From: a candidate division FCPU426 bacterium
Lineage (GTDB): Bacteria > Oederibacteriota > PGYV01 > Palsa-1178
NCBI GenBank assembly: GCA_963840035.1
Contig: CAWIXE010000002.1
Span: 992,099-1,056,098, forward strand
DNA length: 64,000 bases
Direction of reading: 5' to 3'
Shown here one piece after another: positions 7,374-34,291 of this stretch; position 1 is the first letter of the stretch; each line of letters begins with the position of its first letter. A program made the translations under genes and the position numbers. The notes beneath the pieces were generated by a model. That model saw only the letters and a list, made by a program, of their open reading frames with translations, did no database searches and was not told where the DNA came from.

Positions 7374-9512
7374 TTAAAAATTATAGGTTAATGATATTCC
7401 CACATTTTCCATATCCAGCATGGGCGCAAACCCTATCTTATTTTCCTTTGCTATTCTTTCGCTTCTGTTGGTATAAACCGCGTTGTAAACCGCGGTATAG
7501 CCGGGCGCGGAAGCCACATCAGCAAGATATGAAATTCCAAATAAAGCAATACCCGCATAGCGCATAAAATCCTGCGTCGTATTCCCTGTTTTTGTCCCCG
7601 GGTTGGCGAGGTATAACACCGCGCCAAGCGCTTCAACGCCTGCCAGAGTAAACGCCGTTGAATAATTTTCCGCGTAAAAATTACCCGCGCCATGCGCGAG
7701 CAGTCCGGGGCCGGCCGCTATTAAAAACGCGATGCCCGGTTCCTTTTCATCTTTCTTTTCCGTTACCTTATACGGGCTGTTCGGGCAAAGAAGCTGTTTG
7801 TAATATTCCGAATTGACATTATCGGTATGCAGCAGCGAGCCATAAAGGTCTATGCACCTCATGACGGTGTAAACGCCGATTGCGGAATACATAAAACCCT
7901 GCGCGATCTTTTTATTATCATCGCCGGCTTTTCCGTTATAAATCATTCCCACCCCGTATGTAATGCCCGTTAAAATCGGCGTGGCAATAAGCAGCTTAAG
8001 CGCTGTCTCGTTATCGCCCGCCCACCAGTGCCCTGCTCCGGGAATAATTCCGGCGGTAAGCGAGAATACGGAAGTAAGGGCCGGGTCTTTGTATTCCACC
8101 CTTTCCTTTTCAACTTTAAGCTCCATCGTTTTTATCTTATTAAGGTACAGCTCCGCGTTCTCGGTTGCCACAAAAGGAGCCGTGACATAATCAGTCAAAA
8201 GCCCCGCCGCCATCATGCCGGCTCCTGCTGACATAAGCGCGTAATCGGATTTTTCCGTATTTTCAAATTTACCGTTGATTATGGCGCCGGCCGTGATAAG
8301 CATGCCGCCCACTATGGTAAGCGACGAAGACGCGGGCGTCCATGTCTGCAGCCTGCTCCGCGAATAGAAATTACCGAACCCGGCGTAAAGCAGGTTTATG
8401 GGAAAAAGGTCTATGTACGAAAACATATGGGCCGAGAAAGGCGATTTAAACTCCTCATCAACATTCCTCCCCGCGTAAATCTTGTCCATACCCGCCGCGT
8501 GCGACGCCTCAAGTTTTGTGAGGTATGACGCGGTGGAAACATCGCCCGGATTATAAGACAGGTATTTTTTATAGAAAACTATTGCCTGCTCTTTATTGCC
8601 GAAAGAAACATAACAGTTGCCGAGGCGCTGATACGCCTGGTATATGCCCGCGTTGAGTTTTACAACCTCGGAATAGGCGTAGAATGCCTGCTTGTAGTTG
8701 CGCTGAGATTCCAGGGCCAGCCCTTTTTTATAATACTCCTGCGCCTTTGCCTTATTATCGTCAACCGGCGCTATTTTACCCGCTTCTTCAGCCAGTTTTT
8801 TATTTTGTTCTTCAAGTTTTTTCGCGTTTTCCTGCTGTTTTTTCTCGCTCTCGCGCTGCTGCTCTTCAAGCTGTTTCTGAGCGTCCTTCTGCTGCTGTTC
8901 ATACTGGCGCTGCTGTTCCTCGGTGCGTTTCTTCGCGTCCTGCTGCTGTTGTTCATACTGACGCTTCTGTTCCTCAGTACGGTTTTTGGCGTCCTGTTGC
9001 TGCTGTTCGTACTGGCGTTTCTGTTCTTCAGTACGGTTCTTCGCGTCTTTCTGCTGCTGTTCATACTGCCGTTGCTGCTCTTCAGTTCGTTTTTTTGCGT
9101 CCTGTACCTGCTGTTCATTCTTTCGTTTCTGTTCTTCAGCCTGTTTCTTAGCTTCATTTAAGCGCTCTTCATAGCGTTTCTGGCTGTCATCAGCCGCCAT
9201 TTTTGAGTCTTTATTCTTCTGTTCGACAGCCTTTAACTGTTCTTCCTTTTTTGCCTTCAGCGCTTCCTGATTCTTTTTATAGGCTTCCTGCCTTGCTTTA
9301 TAATCAGCAAGCTTCTTATTATAAGCCTGCTGTGTAGCCTGCGCCACTGCCGCCTTTATCTTAGAAACTACAGGCTTTACAGTTTTGACTGGAACCGCTT
9401 TAACCGCAGGTTTAACCGTAGGTATTGCCGTAGGCTTAACCGTAGAAGCAGCCGCTCCAAAGAGCATATTTGCCGAAGCCAAAAGCACAATTAGCAGTAT
9501 ATATTTTCTCAT
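7374..9512 (-). CDS. secreted coiled-coil repeat / TPR protein with C-terminal putative beta-barrel-like domain
   Basis: Signal peptide; 18-aa Q/E/K-rich repeats (DAKNRTEEQKRQYEQQQQ); TPR-like segment; C-terminus ends '...ISLTYNF'. Confidence 0.5.
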   Translation of the reverse strand: MRKYILLIVLLASANMLFGAAASTVKPTAIPTVKPAVKAVPVKTVKPVVSKIKAAVAQATQQAYNKKLADYKARQEAYKKNQEALKAKKEEQLKAVEQKNKDSKMAADDSQKRYEERLNEAKKQAEEQKRKNEQQVQDAKKRTEEQQRQYEQQQKDAKNRTEEQKRQYEQQQQDAKNRTEEQKRQYEQQQQDAKKRTEEQQRQYEQQQKDAQKQLEEQQRESEKKQQENAKKLEEQNKKLAEEAGKIAPVDDNKAKAQEYYKKGLALESQRNYKQAFYAYSEVVKLNAGIYQAYQRLGNCYVSFGNKEQAIVFYKKYLSYNPGDVSTASYLTKLEASHAAGMDKIYAGRNVDEEFKSPFSAHMFSYIDLFPINLLYAGFGNFYSRSRLQTWTPASSSLTIVGGMLITAGAIINGKFENTEKSDYALMSAGAGMMAAGLLTDYVTAPFVATENAELYLNKIKTMELKVEKERVEYKDPALTSVFSLTAGIIPGAGHWWAGDNETALKLLIATPILTGITYGVGMIYNGKAGDDNKKIAQGFMYSAIGVYTVMRCIDLYGSLLHTDNVNSEYYKQLLCPNSPYKVTEKKDEKEPGIAFLIAAGPGLLAHGAGNFYAENYSTAFTLAGVEALGAVLYLANPGTKTGNTTQDFMRYAGIALFGISYLADVASAPGYTAVYNAVYTNRSERIAKENKIGFAPMLDMENVGISLTYNF
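8881..9100. repeat. 54-bp in-frame tandem repeats (about 4 copies) encoding 18-aa coiled-coil units
   Basis: Units beginning 'gcgtcct(t/g)ctgctg...ttcatactg...' recur every 54 bp. Confidence 0.75.
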
Positions 9513-9513
9513 A

Positions 9514-10152
9514 TCAGAACCTCCACGAAAGGCGTGCGGGTATGTAATTAAGCGCCCACGCCGAAGGCCCTAAAGGGATGTACCACAACTTAACCACCTG
9601 TCTAAGGTCTGTGGCTTCAGTAAACATCACCGAGAAAGCGGTTGATAAAACCAGGTTGTCGGTAAGGTTAGCTGAAACTCCTACTTCCACAGAGGGAGAA
9701 AAGAAAGATGAAGAGGTGGTTTCAAGCACCGAGTGTATCTCCCCTGTCTCATTCCTCATAGGATAGGAGGCATTGCCGGAATTAAGTTTTTGTCTTGAGA
9801 CAAAGGAAAAAGAAGGCAGCAGGTTGATAAAGAGGCTGTATCTTTCATCAATTGCGGAAGTCCTGGCCCCGAGGATTACGGCTATATTGGTTATCGCGTC
9901 ATTATATACCGTGTCAGAAAGCGTTGCGGAATCATTATAAAGCATGGGTATGTAAGTAAGCCTGCCGCCGATATAGAAGTTATTAGTGGCGTTGTAAACG
10001 CACTGCCCTTCATATACGGGAAGGTTAATAGCCGCCGAAATAGCGTACCCAATCCCGGCCTCAACGCCGTTATCAAAACTCTTCATTTTAAAAGCCGATA
10101 TAACCGGCACAAACAGCGCCACCAAAACAATCGCTCCAATAAGTCTCTTCAT
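9514..10152 (-). CDS. outer-membrane beta-barrel-type protein
   Basis: Start set at MMKRLIGAIVLVALF signal peptide; alternating hydrophobic pattern, C-terminal '...ARLSWRF'. Confidence 0.5.
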   Translation of the reverse strand: MKRLIGAIVLVALFVPVISAFKMKSFDNGVEAGIGYAISAAINLPVYEGQCVYNATNNFYIGGRLTYIPMLYNDSATLSDTVYNDAITNIAVILGARTSAIDERYSLFINLLPSFSFVSRQKLNSGNASYPMRNETGEIHSVLETTSSSFFSPSVEVGVSANLTDNLVLSTAFSVMFTEATDLRQVVKLWYIPLGPSAWALNYIPARLSWRF

Positions 10153-10331: not shown

Positions 10332-10395
10332 GTAGAGACACAGCTTGCTGTGTCTCGCCTTTCAACGTCTGAGACGCAGCAAGCTGCGTCTCTAC
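10332..10395. repeat. 64-bp GTAGAGA...TCTCTAC double-hairpin repeat, copy A
   Basis: 'gtagagacacagcttgctgtgtctcgcctttcaacgtctgagacgcagcaagctgcgtctctac'; two adjacent perfect hairpins; ~97% identical to copy B. Confidence 0.8.
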
Positions 10396-10450: not shown

Positions 10451-11104
10451 TTAAAAACTTGTTATGCAACGGGCTGTTTTCATAGGCGTTTTCTTTAACA
10501 TCGTTTTATATTTACCATATGTCCGCCATGTTAAAAAACCCATAAAACGCAAATAATAGATTTCGCATGCCTTCAAAAACGAAAATTTTTGCACCTTATT
10601 CTTATCTGAAACCGTCATTAGCCCGACCATATTCTTTCCTATGCTTGGTTTACCCTGATATAAAAACAGCGCAAAGTATGCGATAAACATTATGAACGCT
10701 ATTATCAGATTTACAGCCATTACGAGGTCGCTTATCACAACATAGCCCCGGATAAAGCCCCACTTAAATTCGCCCGTTCTTAAGTATTCCACACTCAGCG
10801 TAACACAGCTTGTTATCGCGCCGATTGGAATCATCAAAAAAAATGCGTCTATAATAAATGCTGCAGACTTACGTATCCATGACGGCTTTGCGTTAATTAT
10901 CTTAACTTTAAAATCAATGCGCTGAAAAAAATATATGAATACAAGATAAAAAACTGCCACCAGCACGCTTTTCAGTGATGAAACGGCATATACTTTTGTA
11001 GCGCCATTGCTTGATTGTATGGATGTGGCTGAACCAGGATTTAAGAAAATAAGAGCCAAAAATATAACAGTAATTATTTTATCCCAGTTTTTAATTTTAA
11101 CCAC
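10451..11104 (-). CDS. RDD family membrane protein
   Basis: Polytopic membrane protein with 'QGKPSIGKNMVGLMTV' resembling the RDD-domain G-x-[ST]-x-GK...G motif. Confidence 0.5.
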   Translation of the reverse strand: MVKIKNWDKIITVIFLALIFLNPGSATSIQSSNGATKVYAVSSLKSVLVAVFYLVFIYFFQRIDFKVKIINAKPSWIRKSAAFIIDAFFLMIPIGAITSCVTLSVEYLRTGEFKWGFIRGYVVISDLVMAVNLIIAFIMFIAYFALFLYQGKPSIGKNMVGLMTVSDKNKVQKFSFLKACEIYYLRFMGFLTWRTYGKYKTMLKKTPMKTARCITSF

Positions 11105-11147: not shown

Positions 11148-11211
11148 GTAGAGACACAGCTTGCTGTGTCTCGCCCTTCAACGTCTGAGACGCAGCAAGC
11201 CGCGTCTCTAC
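11148..11211. repeat. 64-bp GTAGAGA...TCTCTAC double-hairpin repeat, copy B
   Basis: Same sequence as 10332..10395 with 2 substitutions; lies between uvrA stop and RDD gene start. Confidence 0.8.
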
Positions 11212-27097: not shown

Positions 27098-27130
27098 TTA
27101 AAAAAAAAAAGCCCGGCTTTCGCCGGGCTT
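27098..27130 (-). terminator. Rho-independent terminator downstream of SPFH gene (bidirectional form)
   Basis: Hairpin 'gcccggctttcgccgggc' flanked by A11 on one side and T4 on the other; on minus strand GC stem followed by 11 U. Confidence 0.7.
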
Positions 27131-27149
27131 TTAAATTTCAGGATTTGTT

Positions 27150-29412: not shown

Positions 29413-29420
29413 AATAAAAA

Positions 29421-29447
29421 GGGCGCGGTTTTACCCGCGCCCTTTTT
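29421..29447. terminator. bidirectional Rho-independent terminator
   Basis: 'aaaaagggcgcggttttacccgcgccctttttc': GC stem with A-run upstream and T-run downstream; between convergent genes. Confidence 0.7.
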
Positions 29448-31860: not shown

Positions 31861-31972
31861 ATATTTCCTCCTTTTTCCGGGCGTTCGCCCTGTGTTTTGT
31901 GCCTTCACTGAGGAAGACACCAACCCGGGAAAAAGGTTCCATAATAAAACGCATTATTTATAAGGCCATTTG

Positions 31973-31997
31973 TAGGGACAGCGCTCCCGCGCTGTCC
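31973..31997. repeat. GC-rich hairpin, inverted duplicate of hairpin at 32062..32083
   Basis: 'tagggacagcgctcccgcgctgtcc', palindromic stem 'ggacagcgc'/'gcgctgtcc'. Confidence 0.7.
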
Positions 31998-32045
31998 GCG
32001 CGGGGATTATGTTATGATTTTTAAACGTGGCTATAAATTCAGGTG

Positions 32046-32083
32046 AAAAAAAAACGCCGGCGGACAGCGCGGGAGCGCTGTCC
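32046..32083 (-). terminator. Rho-independent terminator immediately after 32084..32602 gene
   Basis: Minus strand reads 'ggacagcgctcccgcgctgtcc' followed by 'gccggcg' and U9. Confidence 0.65.
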
Positions 32084-32602
32084 CTACTCTGCGTACACCC
32101 ATTCAAAATCTCTTATTTTACTATTCCAATAAGCAATCGCGCTGTCAGCGTGAAACCGTTTAAACATGATTACCGGCGTTTTAAAAGTCCGGCCCTGCCA
32201 TGTCCCGGTGAAACTTTCCAGGCTGAGGTTATCCGGTAAGGATTTATACTTTCCCAGGAAATATTTCCTGTAATTGGAGCCTTCGCTGATCAAAGCGATA
32301 GCCTGAGCGGAAAAATTCACAACAACCCCGTTTTCCACCACATCCGACCTGACAATAAAGGCATAATCCTTTATGCCGTCAGAGTTAAAATCCGTGTTTA
32401 CATATCCCGGGCTTTTTAGTGTTATCTTGTGTTTCTTTAAAAAGGTTAAAAAATCATCGCTTAAATCCTTTACAGTCATTGTCCTTGCGTCAGGGCCGAA
32501 TGACATGAGCACGCTTTCAAAATTAAGGCCTTCAATTGGCCAGATCTGTGAAAAACAGAAAACAGGAAGTAATATTAAAACAAGTACAAAGATTTTTTTC
32601 AT
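32084..32602 (-). CDS. secreted hypothetical protein
   Basis: 172 aa, signal peptide MKKIFVLVLILLPVFCFSQ; no recognised motif. Confidence 0.5.
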   Translation of the reverse strand: MKKIFVLVLILLPVFCFSQIWPIEGLNFESVLMSFGPDARTMTVKDLSDDFLTFLKKHKITLKSPGYVNTDFNSDGIKDYAFIVRSDVVENGVVVNFSAQAIALISEGSNYRKYFLGKYKSLPDNLSLESFTGTWQGRTFKTPVIMFKRFHADSAIAYWNSKIRDFEWVYAE

Positions 32603-32624: not shown

Positions 32625-32652
32625 GTAGAGATGGGGTTAACCTCATCTCTAC
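32625..32652. repeat. GTAGAGA...TCTCTAC hairpin (12-bp stem, 'ttaa' loop)
   Basis: 'gtagagatggggttaacctcatctctac'; same terminal heptamers as the 64-bp repeat family. Confidence 0.6.
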
Positions 32653-32658
32653 GAAGGC

Positions 32659-33705
32659 TTATTTTCCCTGCGACATTTTCAACACCGCGCCTGTTGCCGC
32701 GTCTATTTCAATTCCCGGAACACTGCCGGCCCATCCTTCGACAGGCTTGCCGTCTATTTTCCACACATTATCTTTGAGCAATACCGCATATGGTTTAAAT
32801 GAATCTAATGTTGCTTTATCAAATCCGGCTTTTATCCAGGCCTTTTCCGCGATCTCAACAGCCTGCACTTTTGTAATTGCAGCTTTTATACTTACCCCTG
32901 CTGTTTTTGTAGCGCCCCACGAATCAAAAGCCGCTTGTGACTCAAAACCGGGAGCCGCCTGTTCAGTTGAAACCCCTTTATAAAAATTCAAAGCTGAATC
33001 CTCAGTTTTGTCATATTCATAATTAGCCTTTAATTCGACACTTTCCGCTTGCGGTTCCATTAACCCTAGCGATTTTTTTGCCTTATATTCAATATTGACG
33101 CCTGCCGGTTCCGCGGGTGCCGCGGGCTGCGCCTGTGCTTTTGGCGCTGACGCCGGCATAGCCCTTTTAGCGCCGCTGACCGCCGCGCCTGTATCCTTTT
33201 TTGCCTTCGCAATATCAAATACCGCTTCTGCCTTGCCTGACCCTTTTGAAAGGCCTATTTCTTCATTTAATTCAGCCAGCTTATTATCCATTGCTTTTTC
33301 CTTCACCTGCGTCTCAGCCTCAAATTTTGCCGCGTCTTTTACGCCTGCCGCTGATTTATACTCGGGGGTATTTGTAATCTGCCTTATGAAAAAAGCTATC
33401 AGTATTACCCCAAACCCGGTTGCAAAGGCCCTGAAATACGGGTTAAAGACAAAACTTGCCTTCTTTTTGTCCGCCGCATTGAGCTTTTGGTCAAGCTTCG
33501 CGTAAAAGTTTTGCGGCAGTTCCAGCTCTTTTGCCTTTGTATTTTTAAGCTCATTGACGGCCTTTCGCGTAAGTTCAAGTTCCAACGGGCAGTCTTTGCA
33601 TGTTTTTAAATGCGCTTCGAAATCAGACAACGCTTTGCCCGTCAGTTTCTTATCTATATACTCTGATATGCTGTTGTGGAATTCTTTATGATTCATCTTC
33701 ATCAC
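32659..33705 (-). CDS. anti-sigma factor, zf-HC2 zinc finger, single TM, periplasmic C-terminal domain
   Basis: 'HLKTCKDCPLELELTRKA' zinc-finger; TM 'FATGFGVILIAFFIRQI'; overlaps sigma gene stop. Confidence 0.7.
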   Translation of the reverse strand: MMKMNHKEFHNSISEYIDKKLTGKALSDFEAHLKTCKDCPLELELTRKAVNELKNTKAKELELPQNFYAKLDQKLNAADKKKASFVFNPYFRAFATGFGVILIAFFIRQITNTPEYKSAAGVKDAAKFEAETQVKEKAMDNKLAELNEEIGLSKGSGKAEAVFDIAKAKKDTGAAVSGAKRAMPASAPKAQAQPAAPAEPAGVNIEYKAKKSLGLMEPQAESVELKANYEYDKTEDSALNFYKGVSTEQAAPGFESQAAFDSWGATKTAGVSIKAAITKVQAVEIAEKAWIKAGFDKATLDSFKPYAVLLKDNVWKIDGKPVEGWAGSVPGIEIDAATGAVLKMSQGK

Positions 33706-34291
33706 CTATTATCGGCGTCAGCTTGATTTTAAGCGCTTCCCTTGCCCTTGCTATCCTTGACTTCACAGTTCCGAGCGCCACTTTTGTTATTTCCGATATT
33801 TCCTCGTAACTTAACTCCTCTATCTCCCGCAGCACAAGCATTTCCCTTGCCTGCTCCGGGAGTTCGTCCACGGCCTTTCGTACTATCTCTTTTCTGTGGA
33901 ATTTCTCAAACTCCTCGTCTGCGCCCGGCTTTTTATCCGGCAGTTCAAGCTTTATCGAGCCTTCTTCGCCTTCTATGACCTCATCGAGCGAATCATGCTT
34001 AAAAAAGAACCTGCGGCTTTCATATCTCACCCTGTTCTTCCAGGCGTTTATGGCTATCCTGTATACCCAGTTCCCGAACGGACAGTCATGCCCGAACCTG
34101 TTTATGGAGTTATAAGCGTTCACAAAAGCGTCCTGGGCAATATCCTCAGCCGCCTCTTTTGAATTAGAGAGCCGGTAACAAAGATTATATACCTTAGCAG
34201 CGCATGACCTAACCAGCGCGTCAAAAGCATTCCTGTCGCCCTTTTTAGCTTTTAAAACAAGCTCTTTTTCTTCTTTAGTTATCTCAGCCAC
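33686..34291 (-). CDS. ECF-type RNA polymerase sigma factor
   Basis: sigma-70 region 2 and region 4 ('LSYEEISEITKVALGTVKSRIARAR'). Confidence 0.85.
   Translation of the reverse strand: MAEITKEEKELVLKAKKGDRNAFDALVRSCAAKVYNLCYRLSNSKEAAEDIAQDAFVNAYNSINRFGHDCPFGNWVYRIAINAWKNRVRYESRRFFFKHDSLDEVIEGEEGSIKLELPDKKPGADEEFEKFHRKEIVRKAVDELPEQAREMLVLREIEELSYEEISEITKVALGTVKSRIARAREALKIKLTPIIGDEDES

Follow-up and report, generated by a model that had tools for sequence, protein, structure and literature searches.

In the 64-kb stretch of DNA analysed here (the window), which comes from a candidate division FCPU426 bacterium, two GC-rich hairpins of the same sequence stand in inverted orientation between two genes on the minus strand, a 172-aa open reading frame (ORF) and a gene encoding a VIT-vWA protein. 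The original prediction regarded one of them as a clean terminator of the upstream gene and placed the other in the 5' region of the VIT-vWA gene; together they were thought to form one long stem or a terminator/antiterminator pair. The question raised by this locus is thus whether the two hairpins are a regulatory device dedicated to the neighbouring genes or repeats of a more general kind. We present evidence that the feature is very probably a head-to-head (HH, GTAG-outward) homodimer of a GTAG-tagged repetitive extragenic palindrome (REP), in the arrangement known as BIME in E. coli and REPIN in Pseudomonas. On this view it brings a new sequence to a familiar class of intergenic repeats and is not a dedicated regulatory switch.

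Structure of the inverted repeat

A repeat finder and the sequence itself agree on an inverted repeat with arms of 28 nt that are 100% complementary and have 60 nt between them (Table 1). Each arm is composed of GTAG, a 9-bp stem with a 4-nt loop, and a final GC; both arms thus show the GTAG tag, the perfect 9-bp stem and the 4-nt loop of a GTAG-tagged REP. The claim of two inverted hairpin copies is borne out in a stronger form than originally proposed, as the repeat is perfect over 28 nt and includes the unpaired GTAG, a tag that had been overlooked together with the membership of the hairpin in a dispersed repeat family. The positions given for the second hairpin (32062-32083) were correct, those of the first were off by one (it occupies 31976-31997), and the reported distance of 60 bp is that between the 28-nt arms, the 22-nt hairpins proper being 64 nt apart. 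The two REPs are inverted with their tags outward, and a single stem is predicted for the pair (-74.5 kcal/mol for the minus strand, -80.1 kcal/mol for the plus strand), which is the geometry of a BIME/REPIN doublet. A weak sigma-70-like hexamer pair is located inside the dimer spacer (32033-32006, minus strand).

Table 1. Positions of the REP dimer, the surrounding genes and signals, and further repeats and terminators in the window
Feature	Positions	Strand	Remarks
Left REP unit, GTAGGGACAGCGCTCCCGCGCTGTCCGC	31972-31999	+	Arm of perfect inverted repeat
Parts of left unit	GTAG 31972-31975; stem GGACAGCGC 31976-31984; loop TCCC 31985-31988; stem GCGCTGTCC 31989-31997		Followed by GC
Dimer spacer	32000-32059	.	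AT-rich, 60 nt
U9 on minus-strand transcript (A9 on plus)	32046-32054	-	Possible terminator tail; 7 nt past right stem
Right REP unit	32060-32087	-	Exact reverse complement of left unit (sequence, repeat finder)
VIT-vWA gene, 800 aa	29458-31860	-	Pfam VIT, VWA; ATG 31860-31858; RBS AGGAGG 31872-31867
ECF-sigma-type promoter motif	31915-31940	-	GGAAC (31940-31936)-N17-GTCT (31918-31915); from alignment; downstream of both hairpins
172-aa orphan ORF	32084-32602	-	Signal-peptide-like N-terminus; 3' end abuts right REP
Single GTAG...CTAC hairpin of another type, GTAGAGATGGGGTTAACCTCATCTCTAC	32625-32652	.	Between anti-sigma gene and orphan ORF
Anti-sigma factor gene	32659-33705	-	zf-HC2 domain
ECF sigma factor gene	33686-34291	-	
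Second-type GTAG-REP head-to-head dimer	10332-10395	+	Stems GAGACACAG / GAGACGCAG, 14-nt spacer
Second copy of second-type dimer	11148-11211	+	Near-identical
Canonical bidirectional intrinsic terminators	27107-27132, 29416-29447		A-run, GC stem, T-run directly abutting; between convergent genes

The window-type dimer occurs once, with its two copies, in the 64-kb window: no further 22-mer copies were found at up to 3 mismatches (100 dinucleotide shuffles gave 0 matches), and no further 28-mer copies at up to 7 mismatches. It is not the only GTAG-tagged repeat of the window, which contains a total of seven GTAG-tagged hairpins of three types; among its 20 perfect GC-rich hairpins, five carry the tag. 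The second type forms 64-bp outward-tagged heterodimers, whose two stems differ by a compensatory pair. These dimers are found in successive intergenic gaps around a low-GC RDD-like ORF (10451-11104, minus strand) near uvrA. Since a hairpin of the remaining type and the right REP stand on either side of the orphan ORF, this ORF is bracketed by GTAG-tagged repeats. Elsewhere in the window, a 712-aa ORF (7374-9512, minus strand) contains a long run of near-identical EEQ(K/Q)RQYEQQQ(K/Q)DAK(N/K)RT repeats and, after these, segments of TPR-like and membrane type.

An Rfam search over the whole window recovered no family at gathering thresholds, and relaxed thresholds yielded only chance matches of microRNA precursors to the long hairpin. 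An integron attC site was considered as well and rejected, as a GTTRRRY-type core is missing and each arm matches a dispersed repeat perfectly.

A dispersed family of REP units

The original prediction had suggested searching for the hairpin elsewhere, and this search revealed a dispersed repeat family. Using the unit GTAGGGACAGCGC-N4-GCGCTGTCC in metagenomes, we found 118 exact copies of the tagged unit in 109 contigs, while the number expected by chance is well under one (a rough estimate that assumes ~5e11 bases). Representative genomes were scanned with the bare, untagged palindrome; the copy numbers per genome are counted among the matches listed and are lower bounds. This pattern is too loose, and most of the 116 matches listed are unrelated GC-rich hairpins in high-GC genomes; about 15 of the 116 carry GTAG/CTAC directly at the stem, against a chance expectation of about one. 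At least two to four tagged copies each are present in several MAGs, which by their labels represent four or more phyla: candidate division FCPU426, 'bacterium SpSt-1175', Spirochaetia bin.56, two termite-gut Oscillospiraceae, a groundwater Verrucomicrobia MAG and a Chthoniobacterales MAG. In IMG/VR viral contigs the window-type REP is absent, and the second REP type of the window has one match (L234, 3540-3641), itself an HH dimer.

Similarity between the copies extends beyond the stem. Contigs L012, L016, L017 and L062 match the window arm over TTTGTAG...GTCCGC, and these copies are mostly single and intergenic. In 108 of the 118 metagenome copies the stem is followed by G, and T predominates at both positions ahead of GTAG. 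The family can be divided by loop sequence: TCCC or TCCT is found in low-GC contigs like the window and CCCT or CCCA in the termite gut, while a high-GC soil sub-family has the loop GCTT or GCCT and then a second small hairpin. Many low-GC members have T-rich tails. In addition, the copies in low-GC contigs are biased towards extragenic positions, with 26% of them located in open frames of at least 120 aa compared with 69% of random positions (p = 1e-9). Because flanks are conserved, loops and tails define sub-families and ORFs are avoided, we infer that the family copies are related by common descent and are not convergent terminators.

The short-read assembly of the same organism (ERR11594406) breaks at both REP arms, which weakly supports the arm being repeated in the genome. 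Contig L001 of this assembly ends (10545) just past the right arm, and the start of L002 (1) falls within the left arm. At its last base L001 (..GTCCGCCA) departs from the window (..GTCCGCCG), a hint that the sample contains a further copy or a variant. In the FCPU426 MAG contig L017, a larger GTAG-headed palindrome, GTAGGGGCGGAC...GTCCGCCCGCTGCAG, is located at 125-195, about 100 bp from a pair of window-type REPs.

Outward-tagged dimers recur in other contigs, namely L167 (61-nt spacer), L165 (40 nt) and L129 (27 nt, twice). The spacers of outward-facing pairs thus range from 27 to 61 nt, and other copies occur alone. In the termite gut the copies form heterodimers, tags outward, around a conserved spacer of 23 nt, GGGATTTTGATGAAATTTAACGG. 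In an alignment, the first ~30 nt of the window spacer (GCGGGGATTATGTTATGATTTTTAAACG) and the tail in L017 resemble this termite-gut spacer; the window spacer as a whole is not conserved with other dimers, and the same arms carry different spacers in other contigs. Other arrangements comprise one inward-facing pair (L017) and two tandem pairs (L148, L195).

Association with a REP-associated transposase

In two contigs from different metagenomes (L139 and L203), two outward-facing copies of the unit, 566 bp apart from start to start, flank a 191-aa ORF. This ORF scores above the cutoffs of both the NCBIfam model NF047646, 'REP-associated tyrosine transposase' (RAYT; 82.2 bits against 80), and Pfam Y1_Tnp (33.1 bits against 23); its sole PDB match is 4ER8, E. 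coli TnpArep (E = 8e-7). Among the 120 of 807 homologues of the L139 RAYT that were listed, the name given by the source is 'REP element-mobilizing transposase RayT'. A second RAYT, which passes NF047646 with 88.8 bits, adjoins a REP copy in L130. With a RAYT flanked by REP copies in L139 and L203 and one adjoining a copy in L130, the REPtron arrangement described in PMC3733652 and PMC8266576 is thus found at the level of the repeat family. The 64-kb window itself contains no RAYT detectable with an HMM built from the 120 homologues (best E = 1.6), with the L139 RAYT as a probe, or by tblastn with an approximate sequence of E. coli YafM. Open frames of ~940 aa in L149 (7221-10049) and L159 (3202-6030) each include a weak RAYT-like segment ~1.6 kb from a REP copy; their scores with the RAYT HMM are E = 6e-9 and E = 2e-10, respectively.

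The nature of this enzyme also bears on a different kind of mobile element. A small intergenic element with perfect 28-nt terminal inverted repeats could be a MITE, but of the hallmarks of a MITE only the terminal inverted repeats are present. The flanks of the arms contain no target-site duplication (...CATTT directly before GTAG on the left, CTAC followed by TCTGC... on the right), the arm is mostly found as a single unit or with many different unrelated spacers, and the enzyme encoded between such arms is a Y1/HUH RAYT and not a DDE transposase. A MITE is thus very unlikely. HUH/Y1 enzymes are not expected to generate target-site duplications, and the lack of a direct repeat at the flanks therefore counts in favour of a REP.

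Gene context and orthologous loci

All genes at the locus are encoded on the minus strand, in the order ECF sigma factor, anti-sigma factor, 172-aa ORF, hairpin pair and VIT-vWA gene. The 172-aa ORF belongs to no Pfam family and has no homologue other than itself among 5.8 billion proteins. The GTAG in the right arm (32087-32084, minus strand) provides the TAG stop codon of this ORF (32084-32086); this codon is the sole overlap of the dimer with coding sequence, and the dimer otherwise lies between the two ORFs. The exact sequence of the VIT-vWA protein has been called in public assemblies.

VIT-vWA orthologues with 76, 70 and 67% identity are found in the same sigma/anti-sigma/VIT-vWA synteny in L119, L121 and L124. 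Alignment of the four loci, including that of the window, showed that ATGGAAC and GGTGTC are invariant, and promoter motif, leader and RBS are conserved in all four genomes. The motif GGAAC-N17-GTCT is typical for promoters recognized by ECF sigma factors. Its conserved position ahead of the VIT-vWA gene suggests that this gene is a target of the adjacent ECF sigma factor. In the relatives the motif is located at 9923-9950 in both L119 and L121 and at ~9843-9870 in L124. Past the promoter motif, just ahead of the VIT-vWA RBS, the leader contains a small conserved hairpin (GGGC...GCCC) whose loop varies.

Neither the 172-aa ORF nor the dimer of the window is present in any of the three syntenic relatives, which are distant (67-76% protein identity). 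In two of them the same gap contains other GTAG-tagged hairpins, which in L119 are of two types and in L121 comprise three copies of GTAGAGAGGGGGCTTGCCCCCTCT; L124 has no GTAG REP there. The occurrence of other GTAG REPs in two of three orthologous gaps suggests that the site is a REP-accepting gap whose occupants turn over.

Terminator, long stem or attenuator

Read on the minus strand, the stop codon of the 172-aa ORF is followed by the hairpin, GCCGGCG and U9, with the stem starting 1 nt past the stop codon. In the RNAfold prediction the REP stem is lengthened by ACGC/GCGU plus two more pairs and reaches the U-run (-23.3 kcal/mol); a scan for the terminator consensus picked only a weaker alternative 6-bp stem. 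The right hairpin might therefore be a plain intrinsic terminator of the upstream ORF and the left one a local inverted duplication of it, with no involvement of mobile repeats. As in intrinsic terminators, a GC-rich hairpin stands just past a stop codon ahead of a U-run, which the predicted extended stem abuts. Calling it a clean terminator nevertheless goes too far, for the U-run starts 7 nt past the 9-bp stem, in contrast to the canonical terminators of the window, where it abuts the stem directly. Moreover, more than 100 copies elsewhere have the same unpaired GTAG, loop and flanking bases, which would not be expected of independent terminators, nor would such terminators flank a RAYT gene. 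Taken together, this makes a plain terminator unlikely as an explanation of the pair, but termination is compatible with the REP dimer as a secondary, co-opted role. Roles as terminators or stabilisers are known for REPs. Because such roles are known, the predicted extended stem abuts the U-run and many low-GC members of the family have T-rich tails, it is plausible that the right REP and U9 serve as a co-opted terminator or stabiliser.

Folding of the minus-strand RNA also reproduced the one long stem that had been envisaged, which is strongly predicted provided that both arms are transcribed on one RNA (-74.5 kcal/mol, z = -8.1). This stem, together with the U9 that follows the proximal hairpin, could be taken to indicate a purpose-built attenuator, either a terminator/antiterminator pair or a single long regulatory stem that controls the VIT-vWA gene. 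The order of the elements argues against such a device: the alternative pairing partner is located 3' of the U-run and cannot pre-empt termination, as the second arm is made too late to compete. Both hairpins are also upstream of the conserved GGAAC-N17-GTCT promoter, so that the left hairpin, contrary to the original prediction, is probably outside the main 5' UTR of the VIT-vWA gene. In addition, the pair is absent from the leaders of the orthologous loci, its arms are copies of a repeat that is found in more than 100 unrelated contexts, and no Rfam family matches. An attenuator is thus exceedingly unlikely at this locus.

Comparison with known REP systems

The dimer of the window is in good agreement with published descriptions of REPs. 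According to Di Nocera, De Gregorio and Rocco 2013 (PMC3733652), GTAG-tagged REPs have stems of 6-13 bp and occur as singletons and dimers, among which the HH type is favoured and spacers are usually 20-100 bp long; most of these repeats are found downstream of an ORF, and they also flank RAYT genes. The units described there resemble the one found here in having an unpaired GTAG at one end and a stem with a short loop, and the families share with it the presence of singletons and HH dimers, the co-occurrence of several families per genome, the location downstream of ORFs and the flanked RAYT. The stem GGACAGCGC has no occurrence in the text of that paper, whose 24 family consensus sequences stand in figures.

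In E. coli (REP/BIME and TnpA-REP, RAYT group 2; PMC8266576, 4ER8), GTAG is likewise combined with a palindrome, REPs form inverted pairs with a linker, and a single-copy Y1 transposase flanked by REPs (the REPtron) is found as for the REP type described here. In contrast to the short perfect stem and the homodimer of the window, E. coli has REPs of 29-37 nt whose palindromes are imperfect and bulged, and its dimers combine different types (y with z). A closer counterpart in geometry is the REPtron Sm of Stenotrophomonas maltophilia (RAYT group 3; PMC8266576), where GTAG directly precedes a perfect 8-bp palindrome with a 3-nt loop, nearly the 9 bp and 4-nt loop seen here, although sequence and host phylum differ. 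The REPINs of Pseudomonas fluorescens SBW25 (Bertels and Rainey 2011, PMC3116915) also consist of inverted REPs that form a long hairpin. REP doublets were proposed in that study to be the replicating unit, mobilised by the RAYT. A REPIN is defined by the repetition of the whole doublet including its spacer in the genome, which holds for the second type of the window and for the termite-gut relatives.

Origin of the dimer and implications

Based on these observations, the following scenario can be proposed for the dimer. REP units would be non-autonomous elements that a domesticated, single-copy RAYT (HUH/Y1), encoded elsewhere in the genome, would recognize as folded single-stranded DNA. In the published mechanism (PMC8266576, PMC3116915), the single-stranded REP is bound in its folded form, GTAG included, by the RAYT, which then cleaves and rejoins it (PMC8266576), and cutting and rejoining of REP units by the same mechanism would account for their intergenic scatter in the case considered here. 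With less certainty, the right REP together with U9 probably ends or stabilises the transcript of the upstream ECF-sigma operon. The VIT-vWA gene would start from its own conserved ECF-type promoter further downstream, and the distal (left) REP would be a dimer partner only.

A more far-reaching view concerns the spread of the family. The same REP core (GTAG-GGACAGCGC-N4-GCGCTGTCC) is found with lineage-specific loops, tails and partners in at least four labelled phyla (candidate division FCPU426, Spirochaetia, Oscillospiraceae and Verrucomicrobia) and in high-GC soil contigs. It is conceivable, and we put this forward as a speculative proposal, that this pattern reflects repeated transfer of REP/RAYT systems between phyla, or else a very old and strongly constrained co-evolution of RAYT and substrate, and that the GTAG-outward dimer with its U-rich tails acts as a two-way terminator insulating the ECF-sigma operon from its target promoter. 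According to published work, inheritance of RAYTs is mostly vertical, and most work on REPs and RAYTs has been done in Proteobacteria.

For this locus, the correct label is a REP dimer and not a riboswitch-like attenuator, and the VIT-vWA gene should be read with its own ECF-type promoter downstream of the dimer. The current understanding of REPs is left unchanged by these findings; what they add is a type of REP sequence, together with a matching RAYT, from uncultured lineages outside the Proteobacteria. The presence of a common REP core in distant phyla is mildly unusual and bears on how REP/RAYT systems spread.
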